A stretch of 64,000 bases of DNA from Escherichia coli (GTDB lineage Bacteria > Pseudomonadota > Gammaproteobacteria > Enterobacterales > Enterobacteriaceae): the NCBI RefSeq assembly GCF_016026235.1, contig NZ_CP065613.1, one strand, 5' to 3'. Below, piece by piece: positions 2,442 to 64,000 of this stretch. Numbering within the stretch: position 1 is the stretch's first letter; each line of letters starts with the position of its first letter. A program made the position numbers and the translations under genes. Below the pieces are notes generated by a model, which did no database searches, was not told where the DNA came from, and saw only the letters and a program-made list of their open reading frames with translations.

Positions 2442-3191
2442 TTAAATGTCAACGACGTGAACGGTGAGTTTACTGTGCTCAAGATGCATCAGATCGCTGG
2501 CGCGTATTTTCGAATCGGTAATCACGCGATTGAATCGCTCAACGGGACCGATGGAGTATGAATGTACAGCACCAAATTTCGAGCTGTCAGTCAGGACTAT
2601 CGCTTCGCACTCTTTTTCCAGCACGGCATTGACCACATCGGTACGCATCATATCGCGACCGGTGAATCCAGTTTCAGGTTGCCAGCCATCAATACCAATA
2701 AATGCTTTGCTGAAATGCACCTGCTGGATGCACTGGCGTGTCAACGGGCCAACCATACTTTCGCTTTTTTTCTGGTACATGCCACCGAGCAAAATGACTT
2801 CACAAGGCGCGTCTTTCAGCAAATGCGCGATGTAGCTGCTGACCGTGATGATAGTGACATTTTTCTTCTGCTCCCCCAGAGTCCGGGCGAGCAGGGCATT
2901 GCTGCTGCCATTTTCGATAAAGATGGTTTCGCCCGGTTGAACCAGTGACGCGGCAAACTCGGCGAGTTCACGCTTCAGCGTATAGTTGCTCATCATACGG
3001 GTTTCGACGTCATCACTATCAAGCGAAACTGCAAAGCCATGTGCACGGCGGAGGTAACTCAGTTTTTCGAGGGTGTTGAGATCCTGGCGAATGGTAACTT
3101 CAGAAACTCCAGTGGCTTTTGCCAGATCGGTTACGCTAACCTGACCCTGGTCAATGACCATCTGTAGAATAGTTTGTTGTCGGGAATTCAT
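2442..3191 (-). CDS. yciT: DeoR-family transcriptional regulator YciT
   Basis: 249 aa; N-terminal HTH (QQTILQMV...[20 protein letters not shown]) plus DeoR C-terminal sugar-binding domain. Confidence 0.9.
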
Positions 3192-3280
3192 CGCTGTAAT
3201 TCTTATAACGTTATAATACTAAATAAAAAAATACTGACGCGCCGGGCATCCTCAAATAGGAAAACCTGAAGGCACGATTG

Positions 3281-3463
3281 TTAAATCTCCCACGGTGCCT
3301 TCGGGATGTCTGGCGTAGATTCAGCAACCTGGCGCAAGAGTTCTGCTTTAAGTATCTCGAGATTATGGATCGCAGAGTGGTAATCGCCTGCCACAAGGAT
3401 ATCTAACACAATATCAATACGTTCGGCAACGCGCTGGGCATCAAATTCAGACATCAAGGACAT
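3281..3463 (-). CDS. yciZ: Small protein YciZ (UPF0509 family)
   Basis: ORF 60 aa; true start possibly the internal Met (MSEFDAQRV...) at 3454. Confidence 0.7.
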
Positions 3464-3601
3464 CCTTATAGCAAAAGGGGGAAAATGAATAATGCAAAAA
3501 TTGCCGCTAAAAGAGAAGTGTTTAACAGCAACGGCTAATTATCATCCAGGAATACGATATATAATGACGGGATATAGCGCTAAGTATATATATTCATCTA
3601 C

Positions 3602-5587
3602 TTATGCGCGCTTCAGATAGCGTTTATACCAGCGTTCGAAGGCGACGGCGGGCATCGGTTTGGCAAACAAAAATCCTTGCCGCTCATTGATCCCGTTCTT
3701 GGTTAAAAAAGCATCTTCCTTTGCACTCTCTACACCTTCGGCGATCACCTGAAGATTCAATGCCTGGGCCACAGCGACGATCGCCCGGACCAGTGACTGC
3801 GAGACAGGTTGTTTGTGAATATCTCGAACAAAAACCTGGTCAAGTTTGATGGCATCGATCGGAAAGCGCGCCAGTTGCGAAAGTGAAGAGTAGCCGGTAC
3901 CAAAATCATCCAGATGCACTTGCGCACCTAGTTGGCTAAATTGTTGAATAACAGACAGTGCCAGTTCATCATTCTCAATCAGACAACTCTCTGTCAGTTC
4001 AACATCTATAGGGCAGTATTCAAAATTGAGTTCCTGGAGAACCTGTTTCAGGGCGGTGAAAATGGTTTGATCGGCGAGCTGACGTGCAGAAATATTTACC
4101 GCCACTCGCAGGTTTATGCCTTTATCCCGCCACTTTGCCACCTGGCGTACGACATCGAGAATCACCCAACGGCCTAAAGGCACAATTAGCCCTGACTCTT
4201 CGGCGTAGGAAATGAAGTCCAACGGTGGAATCAACCCACGTTCAGGTGACTGCCAACGTACTAGTGCTTCCAGACTGCGCACTTCGCCACGCCAGGTGAT
4301 TTTCGGTTGATAGTGAATAACCAACTGATCGTTTTCCAGTGCTTTACGCAAGTTGGTATCCAGCCAGAGATATTCAAATACCCGCTGATTCATTTCTGGA
4401 GTAAAAACGCAAAATTGTCCTCGTCCGCCTTCCTTCGCTGTGTACATTGCTGTGTCGGCGTGACGAATAATAGTCGCGCTGTCCGAACCATGTTCGGGAG
4501 AGAGCGAAATACCTACTGAACAGCTGGTATAAACTTCAATTAAACCAATACGAAAGGGGAGGCGTAAGCGGGTCAAAATTCGTGATGCCATTGCTTCCAG
4601 CGCGCTTTGTGAGGTATTGGATGCCAGTACCAGAAACTCATCGCCACCTGGACGCGCCAACACCTGGTCATGTTCGAGACAGCTTAAAATAGCCAATGAC
4701 ACGTCGCGTAATAACTGGTCACCAAACAAATGCCCATAGGCGTCGTTGACCTTTTTAAAATTATCCAAATCAAGATACACAACCCCAACTTTATTGTTAT
4801 CTGCCTGATTAATAGCGTGATCGATTAACTCCTGCATTGCGTTACGATTCGGCAGTCCGGTGATACTGTCGGTATTTGCCAGAATACGCAGTCGCTCCTG
4901 AGCGCGGCGCTCTTCGGTAATGTCGGTACCGGAACAGATTAAAAAAATCTCGTTTTTGCCACTGCCGCTGTGGACAAATTTATTGCGAAACAGAAACAGC
5001 CGCTGGCCTTTACGTGTTGGTATCCACAGTTCGACTTCATATGCATTGCCGCTTCGAAAAAATACACGGTTATTGCGCCTGGATGCCGCAGCTTCACGAC
5101 GGCTCATAAACAGTTTAAACACGCTTTGCCCAATGACGTCGTGTTCTTTCAACCCTGTGTAATCTTCACATAACCGATTGAAGCGTTGGATATTCCCCCG
5201 GCTGTCGAGAATCACTATTGCGGAATGTGCTTCAGAAACTACCTGCTCAGCAAAGGAAAGCCCGTGTGATAAATCACGAGCAACCGCCGGTGTGTCATGC
5301 CATGCAGACGCGTTGCCAGCCCATTCCCGTTTATTGATTTTTCGTCCTACCAGATGCACAGAAAGATCGCTTTCATCGACGGTCAGACTCATCATCAGGC
5401 TGGAGGTGATGACCGTCATTTCCCTGATGCGAGCAGCCTGTTCGGCAGATAACTGCAATGTACGATCAGGTTCTGTGGTTTCGGTGGTAGAAAAGCGCAA
5501 AACATCGCTGCTTTCCGTCAACCGCCAGTATGGATTGTGCGATCCGAGAAAGTTGTACAACGTTGTGGACTCCCTAACGGTTTTCAT
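3602..5587 (-). CDS. pdeR: c-di-GMP phosphodiesterase PdeR (PAS-GGDEF-EAL)
   Basis: 661 aa; degenerate GGDEF region followed by an EAL domain (EVLARW...DDFGTGYSSL). Confidence 0.9.
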   Translation of the reverse strand: MKTVRESTTLYNFLGSHNPYWRLTESSDVLRFSTTETTEPDRTLQLSAEQAARIREMTVITSSLMMSLTVDESDLSVHLVGRKINKREWAGNASAWHDTPAVARDLSHGLSFAEQVVSEAHSAIVILDSRGNIQRFNRLCEDYTGLKEHDVIGQSVFKLFMSRREAAASRRNNRVFFRSGNAYEVELWIPTRKGQRLFLFRNKFVHSGSGKNEIFLICSGTDITEERRAQERLRILANTDSITGLPNRNAMQELIDHAINQADNNKVGVVYLDLDNFKKVNDAYGHLFGDQLLRDVSLAILSCLEHDQVLARPGGDEFLVLASNTSQSALEAMASRILTRLRLPFRIGLIEVYTSCSVGISLSPEHGSDSATIIRHADTAMYTAKEGGRGQFCVFTPEMNQRVFEYLWLDTNLRKALENDQLVIHYQPKITWRGEVRSLEALVRWQSPERGLIPPLDFISYAEESGLIVPLGRWVILDVVRQVAKWRDKGINLRVAVNISARQLADQTIFTALKQVLQELNFEYCPIDVELTESCLIENDELALSVIQQFSQLGAQVHLDDFGTGYSSLSQLARFPIDAIKLDQVFVRDIHKQPVSQSLVRAIVAVAQALNLQVIAEGVESAKEDAFLTKNGINERQGFLFAKPMPAVAFERWYKRYLKRA

Positions 5588-10306: not shown

Positions 10307-10633
10307 TTCCTGCAGAATAATCTCCAGCACCGCCTCCTCATTACAATCAATCTCGTTATTCCAGAAACGCAGCACGGTCCAGCCCTGCGACTCAAGCCAG
10401 CTAGTGCGCCTGGAATCATAGGCAACTGCCAAATCATGCTGCCCACCATCCAGCTCAACGACTACACGCGCCGAGCAGCAAGCAAAATCGAGAATGTAGC
10501 TCCCCACCGGATGTTGACGGCGAAATTTGAAATCACCAAAACGTCGGCTGCGAAGATATCGCCAGAGCTTTCGTTCCTGCAAAGTGAGATTGCGTCTTAA
10601 ATCACGCGCATTTGATTTTATTTTATCCATCAC
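10268..10633 (-). CDS. ycjD: DUF559 (Vsr-like endonuclease fold) protein YcjD
   Basis: 121 aa ORF; the C-terminal codons (RRSPSPQPSP) are encoded by repeat copy 3. Confidence 0.8.
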   Translation of the reverse strand: MMDKIKSNARDLRRNLTLQERKLWRYLRSRRFGDFKFRRQHPVGSYILDFACCSARVVVELDGGQHDLAVAYDSRRTSWLESQGWTVLRFWNNEIDCNEEAVLEIILQELNRRSPSPQPSP

Positions 10634-10700
10634 CTCATTCTGACAAGATTTAATCTCTTGTCAGAATGAGGTGAATAATCTGGAAGGAGGATTCAGAAAA

Positions 10701-11507
10701 TTAGCGATCTTTACGCCACGCATCCGCCGTCAATGCCTCGCCAAAATGACCGGCAATCAGCCGTTTGGTGAGTTCATGCAGCGGCGATGCCAGCACATCC
10801 GCGGTGCTGCCTCGCTCGACAACCTCGCCCTGATGCATCACCAGCACCTGGTCGCTAATGTGCTTCATCATTCCGATATGCTGGGTAACATAAATATACG
10901 AAATGCCCTGTTTTTCCTGTAATTCCAGCATCAGATTAATCAACTGCGAACGCATCGACATATCCAGTGAAGCGAGGGCTTCATCGGCAATAATGACTTT
11001 TGGGCGCAATATCAGCGCGCGCGCCAGACCCAGACGCTGTTTTTGCCCGGGGGCCAACATATGCGGATAGTAACTGACGTGATCCGGTAGCAGCCCAACC
11101 ATACGCATCGTTTCAATAATCTGTTTGCGACGCTGTTCCGGTTCCAGGTTGGTGTTCAGGCGCAGTGGAAAATCCAGAATTTGCGAGATACGTTGACGGG
11201 GATTCAACGAGGTCGAAGGATCCTGAAAAATCATGCGAATACGCTGACTGCGGAAGGAATAATCGCCAAAATGCAGTGGATGATCGTCAATCAATAACTC
11301 GCCGCTGGTAGGCTCTATCATTCCCGCCAGCATTTTTGCCAGCGTGGATTTACCCGAACCATTCTCGCCAATAATCGCCAGTGTCTGGCCTTCACGTAGC
11401 GTAAAGCTCAAGGGTTTTACCGCTTCTACGGTCTGACGACGAAACCAGCCGGTCCGGTAGCGGAACGTTTTACTTAAATTACGCACTTCAAGCAGCGTTT
11501 CGATCAT
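10701..11507 (-). CDS. sapF: Peptide/putrescine ABC transporter ATPase SapF
   Basis: 268 aa; Walker A GENGSGKST, ABC signature and Walker B. Confidence 0.9.
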   Translation of the reverse strand: MIETLLEVRNLSKTFRYRTGWFRRQTVEAVKPLSFTLREGQTLAIIGENGSGKSTLAKMLAGMIEPTSGELLIDDHPLHFGDYSFRSQRIRMIFQDPSTSLNPRQRISQILDFPLRLNTNLEPEQRRKQIIETMRMVGLLPDHVSYYPHMLAPGQKQRLGLARALILRPKVIIADEALASLDMSMRSQLINLMLELQEKQGISYIYVTQHIGMMKHISDQVLVMHQGEVVERGSTADVLASPLHELTKRLIAGHFGEALTADAWRKDR

Positions 11508-11508
11508 C

Positions 11509-12501
11509 TCACTCTTTCTCCATGTTCAGCGGGAAATGACAGGCATAGAGATGATTTTTCGCCCCCGTCAAACGTGGCGTCACAATGCATTCTCGTTGTG
11601 CATACGGGCAACGTGGCCCCAGACGACAACCAATCGGTAACTGTTCCAGCAGTGGGATAGCGCCGGGCAGCGTATTGAGGCGACTTTTATGCGGCATCGC
11701 GCTGCCGAAGTCTGGTATCGCGCGGATCAGCGCTTGGGTATAAGGATGATGTGGCATCGTCACCAACTCCTTACTCGGCGCGGTTTCCACTGTTTGACCG
11801 CAGTAAAGCACGTTAATTTTATCCGCCCATTGGCTAAGCATTTGTAAGTCATGGCTGATAAGCAAAATAGTGGTATTGCTGTTTTGGTTGAGACGCGTCA
11901 GCAGGCGAAAGATTTGCGCCTGGGTTGTTGGCTCCATTGAGTTGGTCGGTTCGTCAGCAATCAGCAGACGCGGTTGATTCGCCAGTGCAATGGCTATCAT
12001 CACTTTCTGACATTCACCTTCGGTCAACTCATAGGGAAAACTGCGCATCGCATCTTTGTGATCTTTAATCCCCACGCGGTGCAGCAGTTCAATGGCACGG
12101 CGTTTGCGCCAGCCAAAACGCTGCCACCAACGGCCTTTATAGGTCCAGGCTGGGATGTTTTGCATCAACTGGCGACCCACACGTTCTGAAGGGTCAAGAC
12201 ACGACTGCGGTTCCTGGAAAATCATCGACACGTTATGGCCAACCAGTTTGCGCCGTTCGCGTGCGGAGAGACGCAGCAAATCGATATCATCAAAACGCAT
12301 ACGGTCAGCAGTAACACGCCAGTTATCTTTATTCACCCCACAAATCGCTTTCGCAATCAAACTCTTGCCGGAACCGGATTCACCAACAAGACCGCGGATT
12401 TCACCTTCGGTTAAGGTCATACTTACCCGGTCGACGGCTTTAACCCACTCATCACCGGTTTTAAATTCAATGGTCAGGTTACGAATATCGAGTAATGGCA
12501 T
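11509..12501 (-). CDS. sapD: ABC transporter ATPase SapD
   Basis: 330 aa; Walker A GESGSGKS; stop is adjacent to the sapF start. Confidence 0.9.
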
Positions 12502-55203: not shown

Positions 55204-56496
55204 CTGAGGAATCCCCAGAAAACAAGACAGGCATAGTGAGATGTGATCTAATTGATTGTGCTAACAATTTCAAGGAGATCACCACTATGCCTGCACGTTC
55301 ATTATGCCAAAATTTCCTTAACAATATACTGGCCCCTTTGCATCTTTACCGTCAAAAATCACTGATTGACGCAACTAATGCTGTAATAAATGGCGCTTCC
55401 CTCACACTTACCAGTATCGGGCGTCATTTAACCGGTACGGCATCAGTTAAAAACAAAATAAAGCGGGTGGATCGACTGTTGGGGAATCGACATTTGCAAA
55501 ATGAGGTTTCCACCATTTTTCAGCGAATTACCCAAAAGATTACGCGGGGAATGTCTCGTGTTGTGATACTCATTGACTGGAGTGCTTATCATGCCTCTCG
55601 TTTTCAGCTTTTGCGGGCAAGCCTGGCATGTGACGGGCGTTCTTTACCGTTGATGAGTTGTGTCGTTCCATCATCACAGACAGCGAATGCAGATGTACAT
55701 GAGCGTTTTCTGGAATCGCTTGCTGAGTGCTTTTCCCCGGGACTGATGTCATTGTTATTACAGATGCCGGTTTTCAGGGGCGATGGTTCCAACAGCTCCG
55801 CTCCCGTGGCTGGACCTATATTTGCCGGGTACTGGGCAATCATTATTACAATGTTGGTAATGGCTGGGAAAAGGTGTCGGACTCAGGCACAAAAGCATCA
55901 ACGACAGCAATTTATTTAGGTGAAGGCCTGCTGGGTCGAGATAAAAATGCACAACATGAAGGGCATTTTTATCTTTATAAAAGTAAGCCTAAAGGTCGTA
56001 GATTTAAACGCTCGAAGGAAAGAGCAACCAGACCATCGGTGACGGCTAAAGCTCGTACTGCCGGGAAATCACCATGGTTTATTTTCACAAACAGTACTGA
56101 GTTCTCGCCAAAACAGGTAATGAAATTATACAGCCGTAGAATGCAAATTGAGCAAAATTTCAGGGATGAAAAAAATCCTCGCTGGGGATTTGGACTACGG
56201 TTTGGTGCCAGTCATTCATCCGGGCGGGTCACGGTATTGAGTCTGATCGCAACATTAGCCAGTATCATTATGTGGTTAAGCGGTTTCAGCCTGGAAAACA
56301 AAGGGATACATCATAAATATCAGGCAAATACAGTGAAGCACAGGCGAGTCATCTCGTTATTAAAACTGGCGGAGAATGTGATTCGACATTCTCCACTCAT
56401 ACTAAACACACTGTCACTTGACGCAGGGCTGAAAGTTCTACAGCAACGGTATACCAATATGATAATGGTTTACTAAATTTTCTGGGGATCCCTCAG
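55204..56496 (+). mobile_element. IS10-like (IS4-family) insertion sequence, copy 1 (1293 bp)
   Basis: Terminal inverted repeats CTGAGGAATCCCCAGAAAA / TTTTCTGGGGATCCCTCAG; flanked by direct repeat AGATTGTCC(C). Confidence 0.9.
55287..56476 (+). pseudogene. IS10-like transposase, frameshifted (copy 1)
   Basis: Reading frame splits into ORFs 55197..55919 and 55727..56476; C4 run at 55735-55738 where copy 2 has C5. Confidence 0.85.
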
Positions 56497-61387: not shown

Positions 61388-61401
61388 TTGATATTTGTCA
61401 A
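61388..61401. promoter_or_regulatory. FNR-box-like site in the fnr promoter (candidate autoregulation site)
   Basis: TTGAT-ATTT-GTCAA versus consensus TTGAT-N4-ATCAA; 20-33 bp upstream of the fnr ATG. Confidence 0.5.
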
Positions 61402-61497
61402 TTTTAACATCTTTTTAGGGAGCAAGTAAGTCTAAGCAAACCTTAACAGCAGAGAATTCCGATATTAGATGTAAATATATGTCTATCTATTTGAAAA

Positions 61498-61515
61498 CCC
61501 TTAAGTTGTTAAGGG
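61498..61515 (-). terminator. Intrinsic terminator downstream of ogt
   Basis: Stem CCCTTAA-GTTG-TTAAGGG; minus strand continues with TTTTCAAA. Confidence 0.6.
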
Positions 61516-61562
61516 TAACTTTACATAAAAGTGTGAACAAGCTGGCACAAATTGTTTAATGT

Positions 61563-62078
61563 TTACAGCAAAAGATAACCTTCGTGGCGCAATAACCACT
61601 CTTTTCGCTGAACTCCGCCTGCATATCCGGTCATGGTGCCGTTTCGGCCAATAACCCGATGGCAAGGTACGACGATGCTGATGGGATTCGATCCGTTTGC
61701 CGCACCAACGGCACGCGCCGCGCCAGGGCGGCCCAATTGTTCAGCCAGTTGGCCGTAATGCATTACCTGCCCGCAGGGGATAGTGCGTAGAGTTTTCCAG
61801 ACTTCGCGCTGAAATGGCGTCCCCCCTGTGGCAGTGGGAAGCGTATCAATAATGCTAAGATTACCGGCAAAATAATCACGAAGCTTGTCGCTTAAACCGC
61901 CTGGGTTGGTGGCAGAAATGCGCTCATAGCCTTCTTTGCGATAATGGATGTCCAGCAGCTGCACCATGCGTTCGCTGTACTCTTCCCATTCAACCGCCCG
62001 CAGGCGAAATTGCTCATCGCAAATCACCCACAGTGGACCCAGTGGCGTGGCAATTTTTTCTTCAAGTAATCTCAGCAT
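61563..62078 (-). CDS. ogt: O6-alkylguanine-DNA alkyltransferase
   Basis: 171 aa; active site PCHRV. Confidence 0.93.
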
Positions 62079-62112
62079 CCGTTCTCTCTTAAGACAAACG
62101 TGGGTAAATCCC

Positions 62113-63406
62113 CTGAGGAATCCCCAGAAAACAAGACAGGCATAGTGAGATGTGATCTAATTGATTGTGCTAACAATTTCAAGGAGATCACCACTATGCC
62201 TGCACGTTCATTATGCCAAAATTTCCTTAACAACATACTGGCCCCTTTGCATCTTTACCGTCAAAAATCACTGATTGACGCAACTAATGCTGTAATAAAT
62301 GGCGCTTCCCTCACACTTACCAGTATCGGGCGTCATTTAACCGGTACGGCATCAGTTAAAAACAAAATAAAGCGGGTGGATCGACTGTTGGGGAATCGAC
62401 ATTTGCAAAATGAGGTTTCCACCATTTTTCAGCGAATTACCCAAAAGATTACGCGGGGAATGTCTCGTGTTGTGATACTCATTGACTGGAGTGCTTATCA
62501 TGCCTCTCGTTTTCAGCTTTTGCGGGCAAGCCTGGCATGTGACGGGCGTTCTTTACCGTTGATGAGTTGTGTCGTTCCATCATCACAGACAGCGAATGCA
62601 GATGTACATGAGCGTTTTCTGGAATCGCTTGCTGAGTGCTTTTCCCCCGGGACTGATGTCATTGTTATTACAGATGCCGGTTTTCAGGGGCGATGGTTCC
62701 AACAGCTCCGCTCCCGTGGCTGGACCTATATTTGCCGGGTACTGGGCAATCATTATTACAATGTTGGTAATGGCTGGGAAAAGGTGTCGGACTCAGGCAC
62801 AAAAGCATCAACGACAGCAATTTATTTAGGTGAAGGCCTGCTGGGTCGAGATAAAAATGCACAACATGAAGGGCATTTTTATCTTTATAAAAGTAAGCCT
62901 AAAGGTCGTAGATTTAAACGCTCGAAGGAAAGAGCAACCAGACCATCGGTGACGGCTAAAGCTCGTACTGCCGGGAAATCACCATGGTTTATTTTCACAA
63001 ACAGTACTGAGTTCTCGCCAAAACAGGTAATGAAATTATACAGCCGTAGAATGCAAATTGAGCAAAATTTCAGGGATGAAAAAAATCCTCGCTGGGGATT
63101 TGGACTACGGTTTGGTGCCAGTCATTCATCCGGGCGGGTCACGGTATTGAGTCTGATCGCAACATTAGCCAGTATCATTATGTGGTTAAGCGGTTTCAGC
63201 CTGGAAAACAAAGGGATACATCATAAATATCAGGCAAATACAGTGAAGCACAGGCGAGTCATCTCGTTATTAAAACTGGCGGAGAATGTGATTCGACATT
63301 CTCCACTCATACTAAACACACTGTCACTTGACGCAGGGCTGAAAGTTCTACAGCAACGGTATACCAATATGATAATGGTTTACTAAATTTTCTGGGGATC
63401 CCTCAG
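62113..63406 (+). mobile_element. IS10-like (IS4-family) insertion sequence, copy 2 (1294 bp, intact)
   Basis: Same terminal repeats as copy 1; flanked by direct repeat GGTAAATCC(C); same orientation as copy 1. Confidence 0.9.
62196..63386 (+). CDS. IS10-like DDE transposase (IS4 family)
   Basis: 396 aa; motifs IKRVDRLLGNRHL, ITDAGF, YSRRMQIEQNFRD, YQANTV match IS10 transposase blocks; SD AAGGAG 9 nt before the ATG. Confidence 0.88.
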   Translation: MPARSLCQNFLNNILAPLHLYRQKSLIDATNAVINGASLTLTSIGRHLTGTASVKNKIKRVDRLLGNRHLQNEVSTIFQRITQKITRGMSRVVILIDWSAYHASRFQLLRASLACDGRSLPLMSCVVPSSQTANADVHERFLESLAECFSPGTDVIVITDAGFQGRWFQQLRSRGWTYICRVLGNHYYNVGNGWEKVSDSGTKASTTAIYLGEGLLGRDKNAQHEGHFYLYKSKPKGRRFKRSKERATRPSVTAKARTAGKSPWFIFTNSTEFSPKQVMKLYSRRMQIEQNFRDEKNPRWGFGLRFGASHSSGRVTVLSLIATLASIIMWLSGFSLENKGIHHKYQANTVKHRRVISLLKLAENVIRHSPLILNTLSLDAGLKVLQQRYTNMIMVY

Positions 63407-63554
63407 GGTAAATCCCCGGACCTATCGGCAGACCAACAAGATACCACGCCAGCAACATCAGCAGCCATACCACCAAAAAGATAAGCGGATAGGGCAAGAC
63501 TAACGAATAGTAAGTACCCAGTTTCGCGTCTGGTTTGTCGCAGTCTGATAGCAT
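63348..63554 (-). CDS. Small hydrophobic ORF whose native C-terminus is replaced by IS-derived codons
   Basis: ATG at 63552-63554 (MLSDCDKPDAKLGTYYSLVLPYPLIFLVVWLLMLLAWYLVGLPIGPGIYP...); the frame runs into the IS end at 63406; without the IS it would end ...GIYPRLS ~10 bp before the ogt start; no clear SD. Confidence 0.25.
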   Translation of the reverse strand: MLSDCDKPDAKLGTYYSLVLPYPLIFLVVWLLMLLAWYLVGLPIGPGIYPEGSPENLVNHYHIGIPLL

Positions 63555-64000
63555 AAAGCGATTTTTTGATTTTTCTGCCTGAAGAAATGAGGGCAAGCCA
63601 TCACATGGATCGAGGGTGGGATAATTCCAGTCAGTGAAATTTTACCGTAGGCTATCTGTTATTTGATTCTGTGGCGTGATAGCCGCCAGACACCACTGAA
63701 CTCGTCACTCATTCCCCAATCCCGGCGAGAATGTGGTTATTTACAGAGCTAAAAATGAATAAAAAATAGAGCCTGTCGACATCCGCCAGACTCTACAGTA
63801 CACACAGCAGTGCATCCTCGTCTTAAATCCGGCCTGGGGTCCTTGTGACCGGTGACAGTGTTATAACGGTTTTACCCATCCGTTGCCAATTTTCTTCAGT
63901 GACAGATTTCACGAAAATATAAGTTAAATCATTTGTCTTGTGATTGCATAATCATGCATCGTTAATCGACGAGTAAATTTACCGGGCGAGTAGCCCGTTC

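Follow-up and report, generated by a model that had tools for sequence, protein, structure and literature searches.

Displacement of the nitrate-activated ogt promoter by an ISEc60 insertion in Escherichia coli, with possible read-through transcription from the insertion sequence

In a 64,000-nt stretch of an Escherichia coli genome (assembly GCF_016026235.1, contig NZ_CP065613.1; hereafter, the window), a copy of the insertion sequence (IS) ISEc60 lies within the 5′ untranslated region of ogt, the gene for O6-alkylguanine-DNA alkyltransferase, and the NarL-responsive promoter of ogt is on the far side of the element (Table 1). We propose that ISEc60, by its own target preference, entered the 49-nt ogt leader between +25 and +26, and that the intact NarL/nitrate-activated promoter would now direct transcription into the IS right end, with loss of nitrate control of ogt. 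The IS end directed toward ogt would combine a transposase promoter reading inward, a second promoter reading outward against it and a long hairpin, and the outward transcript would stop at the hairpin and an adjoining U-tract, giving a short antisense regulator of the transposase, ~75 nt long. Because the outward transcript would meet this terminator-like structure, ogt would receive only those transcripts that pass it, amounting to low, constitutive, nitrate-independent expression. That nitrate control has been lost, and that only terminator read-through reaches the gene, has in our judgment about an even chance of being correct. The case is one of ordinary promoter displacement in which rescue by the IS is unproven; the phenomenon is well known, and this is a new instance of it, in an uncharacterised IS.

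In E. coli K-12, the ogt promoter was reportedly described as NarL-activated by Squire and co-workers in 2009; the usual view is that nitrate metabolism yields nitrosating, DNA-alkylating by-products that are repaired by Ogt. At the K-12 promoter, which has been dissected by experiment, NarL acts through a pair of 7-2-7 sites with centres at −77.5 and −44.5, in combination with an extended −10 element, and these centres precede the −10 element by 65 and 32 bp (Ruanto et al., 2020, PMC7419079; PMC9314961). This published promoter was mapped onto the window, with the register set by the substitutions given in the supplement (−83/−72 and −50/−39) and by the primer sequences (PMC7419079). The window is near-identical to K-12 from approximately −107 to the ogt ATG, and both NarL sites and the extended −10 element have the same sequence and spacing as in K-12. 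At the empty site, the leader has a length of 49 nt, with the ogt ATG at +50, and the sequence duplicated by ISEc60 occupies +16 to +25. In the window, the promoter elements are complete but no longer adjoin the leader and coding sequence of ogt: the native start point and the ogt ATG now lie 1353 nt apart, with 1304 bp (IS plus duplication) interposed. The initial annotation had held that any native ogt promoter would be more than 1.3 kb away, and the mapped start, which lies beyond the IS, bears this out. The window promoter also differs from that of K-12 upstream of approximately −107, where abgT is mostly deleted.

When positions 62113–63416 (the IS and one copy of the duplication GGTAAATCCC) are deleted, the sequence around the junction becomes exactly that of the empty site in E. 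coli 2013C-4974. The minus-strand ogt gene has its ATG at 62078 and the left inverted repeat (IRL; 62113–62131, beginning CTGAGGAATCCCCAGAAAA) starts at 62113, which confirms the 34-bp interval (62079–62112) that had been noted between the left end of the IS and the ogt start codon. IRL and the right inverted repeat (IRR; 63388–63406) agree at 18 of 19 positions. The full 1294 bp are matched in several E. coli genomes and plasmids, where the element is annotated as “IS4-like element ISEc60 family transposase”. The transposase scores well beyond the cut-off of 152 bits for NF033591 (IS4-family DDE transposase), and it shares 36% identity with the IS10 transposase across 375 aa (E = 1e-74). The transposase, the inverted repeats with target duplication, and the identity to annotated ISEc60 all assign the element to the IS4 family. 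The earlier label “IS10-type” is appropriate for the family (IS4, IS10-like group) but not for the identity of the element, which is ISEc60 rather than IS10. The Ogt protein is identical to that of the IS-free strain 2013C-4974, and differs by 1 aa from K-12 Ogt.

The IS end that faces ogt contains both an inward (pIN-like) and an outward (pOUT-like) promoter-like site. The pIN-like site is at the 99.96th percentile of the window in our own position weight matrix scan, and its TGTGATCTA is conserved in relatives; a Dam site (GATC at 62154, inside TGATCTAAT) overlaps the −10 element, and an AAGGAG ribosome-binding site (RBS) and the transposase ATG (62196) follow downstream. The predicted start of the pOUT-like site (~62203) is 7 nt past the A of this ATG, which is the same offset as in IS10 (RNA-OUT start at 115, ATG at 108). 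Left ends were aligned for nine diverged relatives (~70% DNA identity), including ISSfl1 and elements of E. fergusonii, Yersinia, Klebsiella, and Salmonella. Across these relatives, the pOUT-like site is invariant at the TG of its extended −10 and at positions 1, 2, 3, and 6 of the hexamer. Two of the invariant positions are codon wobble positions (third bases of K/Q/S and V/L codons), and the neighbouring wobble bases that vary are the non-critical “n” and the base upstream of the TG. In this small sample, the pattern suggests that selection for promoter function may act on top of coding constraint.

Our own −35/−10 matrix ranked the pOUT-like site only 7th, and its use was limited to coordinates and the pIN-like site. 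A pattern-based promoter and terminator scan returned nothing directed toward ogt in the IS left end, since that scan requires a −35 element; its hit counts equal the chance expectation, and its hits are treated here as weak. In the 34-bp gap between the IS and ogt, neither the pattern scan nor the matrix scan gave a credible promoter. A hybrid promoter, composed of a −35 element in the IS tip and a −10 element in the gap, was rejected on finding no acceptable −10 in the gap. The initial annotation had stated that the transposase-proximal end of such elements carries an outward promoter, and that this end faces ogt; the orientation is as described and a promoter-like site is present there, although its activity is only predicted.

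The predicted outward transcript starts exactly at the foot of a hairpin (62203–62136), and the 132-nt stretch that contains the hairpin has z = −5.0 relative to shuffled sequences. In the alignment of nine relatives, 90% of the pair cells hold standard pairs (23–44% in slid controls), and one pair occurs as AU, CG, and UA. At several pairs, G-U pairing is possible only on the minus strand, the plus-strand equivalents being A-C mismatches. The U-rich tract that follows the hairpin (TGTCTnnTTTT) is invariant or longer (U7) in 9/9 relatives; IS10 has no such U-tract (its tail is UAUCCACCUU). Judged from these features of the sequence, the simplest reading is that the hairpin and U-tract look like the intrinsic terminator of a ~75 nt antisense RNA. 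In plus-strand transcripts that read into the element, the inverted repeat of the hairpin would hide the transposase RBS and ATG, and in this it resembles the fold-back protection of IS10. A d’Aubenton-Carafa-style terminator score was rejected, as rrnB T1 and lambda tR2 scored negative. Four of the relatives (from Yersinia, E. coli MY504, Klebsiella, and S. salamae) have a 12-bp insert (TAATGGGCGGGT) in the interval between terminal repeat and U-tract (alignment columns 16–27), which lengthens the segment downstream of the hairpin.

Table 1. Features of the ogt–ISEc60 region and of the second ISEc60 copy, in coordinates of the window.
Feature	Position	Strand	Remarks
ogt, O6-alkylguanine-DNA alkyltransferase	61563..62078	−	Intact ORF, 171 aa; NCBIfam NF007626 over 1–171/171, 386.6 bits
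Native leader still attached to ogt (old +16 to +49)	62079..62112	−	34 bp; includes Shine-Dalgarno region GGGATTTACCCACGTTTGTCTTAAGAGAGAACGG
Target duplication GGTAAATCCC, left copy	62103..62112		10 bp; ogt side of ISEc60
ISEc60 copy 2 (IS4 family, IS10-like)	62113..63406	+	1294 bp; 100% identical to annotated ISEc60 copies
U-rich tract CUUGUUUUCU	62126..62135	−	Directly 3′ of hairpin, 13–22 bp inside IS tip
pIN-like inward promoter (predicted)	62133..62161	+	−35 AAGACA (62133–62138), 17-bp spacer, extended −10 TGaTCTAAT (62153–62161)
Hairpin of predicted antisense RNA	62136..62203	−	68 nt; dG −31.5 kcal/mol for hairpin alone
ISEc60 transposase, copy 2	62196..63386	+	Intact, 396 aa; NF033591, 360.5 bits
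pOUT-like outward promoter (predicted), extended −10 TGgCATAAT	62210..62218	−	Reads toward ogt; no recognisable −35
Promoter-like TCTACA-18-GATAAT, IS right end	63347..63376	+	Outward, head-on to displaced ogt promoter; pattern scan, chance-rate hits
abgT 3′ remnant (pseudogene) plus 58 nt of IS sequence	63348..63596	−	“Small hydrophobic ORF” of the initial annotation
Target duplication GGTAAATCCC, right copy	63407..63416		10 bp; = +25..+16 of native ogt transcript
Native ogt +1 (C)	63431	−	Published K-12 promoter mapped onto window
Native extended −10, TGgTATCTT	63446–63438	−	65 and 32 bp NarL spacings reproduced
NarL II, TATCTTTTTGGTGGTA	63483–63468	−	Identical to K-12
NarL I, TACTTACTATTCGTTA	63516–63501	−	Identical to K-12
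ISEc60 copy 1, in mppA	55204..56496	+	Duplication AGATTGTCCC at 55194–55203/56497–56506
ORF, open reading frame.

The control region of ISEc60 invites comparison with that of IS10 (pIN, pOUT, and RNA-OUT; Rfam RF00240). In both, the inward −10 element overlaps a Dam GATC site and the outward start lies 7 nt inside the transposase ORF (the two promoters being predicted for ISEc60); the predicted long hairpin RNA of ISEc60 would likewise be complementary to the transposase translation start, and in transcripts that enter from outside, the RBS and ATG could be masked by the inverted repeat. Unlike IS10, ISEc60 has an unrelated hairpin sequence, has the U-tract, and has no RF00240 match: a search of 61400–63700 gave no hit at E ≤ 1, which places ISEc60 outside that Rfam family, whereas the IS10 positive control was recovered (positions 46–115, 98.8 bits). 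In addition, the ISEc60 control region is 24 bp nearer to the tip (ATG at IS position 84 vs. 108), and insertion duplicates 10 bp of target, against 9 bp for IS10.

A close parallel to the ogt insertion is an IS10 element at +12/+13 of the otsBA leader, from which POUT reads into otsB (Stoebel et al., 2009; PMC2744996). At both loci, an IS10-type element of the IS4 family separates the start codon from the mapped transcript start and has its transposase-proximal end toward the gene, and a regulated promoter is cut off (RpoS-dependent at otsBA, NarL-dependent at ogt). However, the IS10 orientation at otsBA was repeatedly selected and expression was measured, whereas the ogt case is known from sequence alone; moreover, ISEc60 has only the 36% aa identity to IS10 noted above, has a conserved U-tract after the outward transcript, and occurs naturally in the opposite orientation at ogt. 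Promoter take-over from such geometry is possible, as IS10–otsBA demonstrates; for ogt, it is a reasonable idea, but not an established one.

The opposite orientation is found in strain FDAARGOS_943, the closest complete genome over the flanking 5.6 kb (99.7% identity), where the identical ogt site holds ISEc60 between copies of the same GGTAAATCCC duplication in the reverse orientation, such that its right end points toward ogt. The ogt gene of this strain is an intact 171-aa ORF with one residue different, and the ISEc60 copy in mppA is likewise inverted with respect to the window (ISEc60 copies at 10515–11808 and 2697–3990 of the analysed FDAARGOS_943 segment). Among 5426 complete E. coli genomes searched with megablast, the ogt–IS junction in the orientation of the window was found in none, and the inverted junction in one; an exact search of GTDB species-representative genomes for the ogt–IS junction gave no match. 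Given the inverted allele, the orientation of ISEc60 at ogt does not appear to have been selected. In the FDAARGOS_943 orientation, the IS right end with TCTACA-18-GATAAT would face ogt. FDAARGOS_943 also has an extra IS5-family element between ynaI and ynaJ (segment 6583–7427) that is missing from the window; therefore, the window strain and FDAARGOS_943 are related but distinct IS-expanded strains.

The proposal in the initial annotation that ogt expression depends on an outward promoter of the IS is not supported, in that a conserved hairpin and U-tract follow the predicted outward start and the inverted allele keeps ogt intact. In its strongest form, the proposal would have a strong pOUT-like promoter with poor termination drive constitutive ogt expression at or above the native level. 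The near-identical geometry of IS10 at otsBA, the well-conserved extended −10, and the intactness of ogt and its Shine-Dalgarno region are consistent with such an outcome, as is the fact that the IS10 RNA-OUT hairpin, which is of similar stability, still reads out. We nevertheless regard full take-over as doubtful, because the ISEc60 subfamily, unlike IS10, has the conserved U-rich tract directly after the hairpin, and because the inverted allele at the same site speaks against selection for orientation. Alternatively, the insertion could be a neutral or mildly harmful hot-spot event in the course of IS expansion that leaves ogt essentially untranscribed, either because termination of the outward transcript is complete or because its promoter is inactive. 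The conserved terminator-like hairpin with its U-tract, the failure of the scans to find a promoter-like site lying within the 34-bp gap or straddling the gap and the IS tip, and the tolerance of the site for either orientation argue for silencing; further, ISEc60 also breaks mppA 6.9 kb away, and the nearest relative has ~38 ISEc60 copies and many pseudogenes. Against this, ogt is a perfect ORF in both strains (although the insertions may be recent), intrinsic terminators are seldom complete, and the outward promoters of IS10-type elements are typically strong, according to the account of Simons et al. (1983) in Stoebel et al. (2009); effective silencing thus also seems unlikely.

Much less probable still is transcription across the whole IS, from the native promoter or from another promoter inside the element, by which some nitrate control would be kept. 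The native promoter is intact and correctly oriented, and the pattern scan places minus-strand promoter-like sites in the IS at 62780–62752, 63247–63220, and 63327–63298, but such internal hits occur at the chance rate (5 vs. 4.2 expected). The 1.35-kb path is antisense to the transposase, and Rho-dependent termination is expected because it has no stop-free stretch longer than 78 codons. A terminator-like hairpin in the IS right end (63279..63306, minus strand; a weak, chance-rate hit of the pattern scan) is on this path, and the hairpin and U-tract at 62203–62126 must also be crossed. The reading that we prefer, in which only leakage past the terminator reaches ogt, has several points against it. 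The pOUT-like site has no −35 element, and its conservation could partly come from the conserved V/L-C-Q residues; our promoter matrix missed the genuine IS10 pOUT when this was used as a control, such that scans of this kind are unreliable either way. The terminator score, having failed its positive controls, gives no measure of termination efficiency. IS10 RNA-OUT too ends after a strong hairpin, yet POUT activates neighbouring genes, so read-through at ogt could be substantial. Finally, the literature on ISEc60 and ISSfl1 yielded nothing beyond annotation-level mentions, and the promoter and terminator roles in ISEc60 are predictions.

Opposite orientations of ISEc60 at one site are not confined to ogt. 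Four sites have the same duplication with opposite ISEc60 orientations between related genomes: the ogt leader, mppA, the ampH/iprA site (2023CK-01509 vs. FDAARGOS_943), and the CS1-fimbrial/TcfC site (“+” in RMDEC332, “−” in RMDEC364 and VL46; flanks and duplication are identical). The tssG site has a single ISEc60 orientation in three strains. One of the opposite-orientation pairs comprises isolates from the same study and country that have near-identical ISEc60 repertoires, and the inverted-repeat difference at position 7 flips together with the element. Homologous recombination was ruled out as the source of the opposite orientations. Because recombination within the IS cannot exchange the ends that abut the flanks, the opposite orientations imply either independent insertions at a hot spot (repeated after precise excision) or an in-place flip of the whole element. 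It is conceivable, albeit improbable, that ISEc60 flips in place or excises precisely and re-inserts at hot spots in a manner that constitutes a heritable switch of ogt expression; if so, the pOUT/terminator end would be directed toward ogt in the window strain, and the other end in FDAARGOS_943. The orientation flips are a by-product of this analysis that is more unusual than the promoter displacement itself.

The position of the insertion is explained by target choice. Seven distinct duplications were recovered (AGATTGTCCC, GGTAAATCCC, TGGTTATCCC, GGGTTTCCCC, GGGCGATCCC, GGGGTAGCCC, and GAGAATTCCC), and the ISEc60 target pattern is GGG-N4-CCC, mostly followed by C, and often within a longer G-run/C-run palindrome. 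The ogt leader of the lineage reads GGGTAAATCCCC on the plus strand, where K-12 has A for the first C of the run: at window position 63417 (+15 of the leader), the minus strand has G vs. T in K-12 (GGGGATTTACC vs. GGGTATTTACC), which completes a plus-strand C4 run. It is probably through this G at +15 that the ogt leader became a target for ISEc60. Because the ogt-leader site fits the ISEc60 target preference, that preference alone accounts for the place of insertion, and selection is not needed. The tips of the IS (GGAATCCCC) themselves resemble the ISEc60 target sequence.

The local gene order is fnr–ogt–IS–abgT remnant. The “small hydrophobic ORF” upstream of the IS corresponds to the final ~47 aa of AbgT (508 aa in K-12, ending ...KPDAKLGTYYSLVLPYPLIFLVVWLLMLLAWYLVGLPIGPGIYPRLS*), and the same piece is annotated as an AbgT pseudogene in the IS-free strain 2013C-4974. 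The empty-site frame ends ...GPGIYPRLS* and the IS-bearing frame ends ...GPGIYPEGSPENLVNHYHIGIPLL*, with agreement with K-12 up to ...GIYP; the earlier observation that the IS replaces the last three codons of this ORF is correct. Because the ORF is a fragment of an AbgT pseudogene, the replacement has no functional weight. An exact look-up of the chimeric abgT′–IS ORF gave no record. Nearly all of the abgABT operon is gone in this lineage; ~143 nt of the abgT 3′ end are left (window ~63417–63560), which just suffices to retain the ogt promoter to approximately −107. Upstream of the remnant are a LysR pseudogene and AraC-family genes, and any regulatory sites that K-12 may have beyond −107 are absent.

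ISEc60 copy 2, at ogt, is the intact, consensus copy of the element. In copy 1, in mppA, one C is lost from a C5 run (55734; equivalent to 62644 in copy 2), and the transposase is truncated after 210 aa; one further single-nucleotide difference separates the copies (55325 T vs. 62234 C).

By this insertion, ISEc60 would cut the link between ogt and nitrate respiration in an IS-rich, pathogenic E. coli lineage. The severed link could increase G:C to A:T mutation during anaerobic growth on nitrate in the gut; alternatively, inducible ogt expression could have been exchanged for a low constitutive level. With empty, occupied, and opposite-orientation alleles present in close relatives, the ogt leader provides a clean natural test case for transcription that leaks from IS ends.

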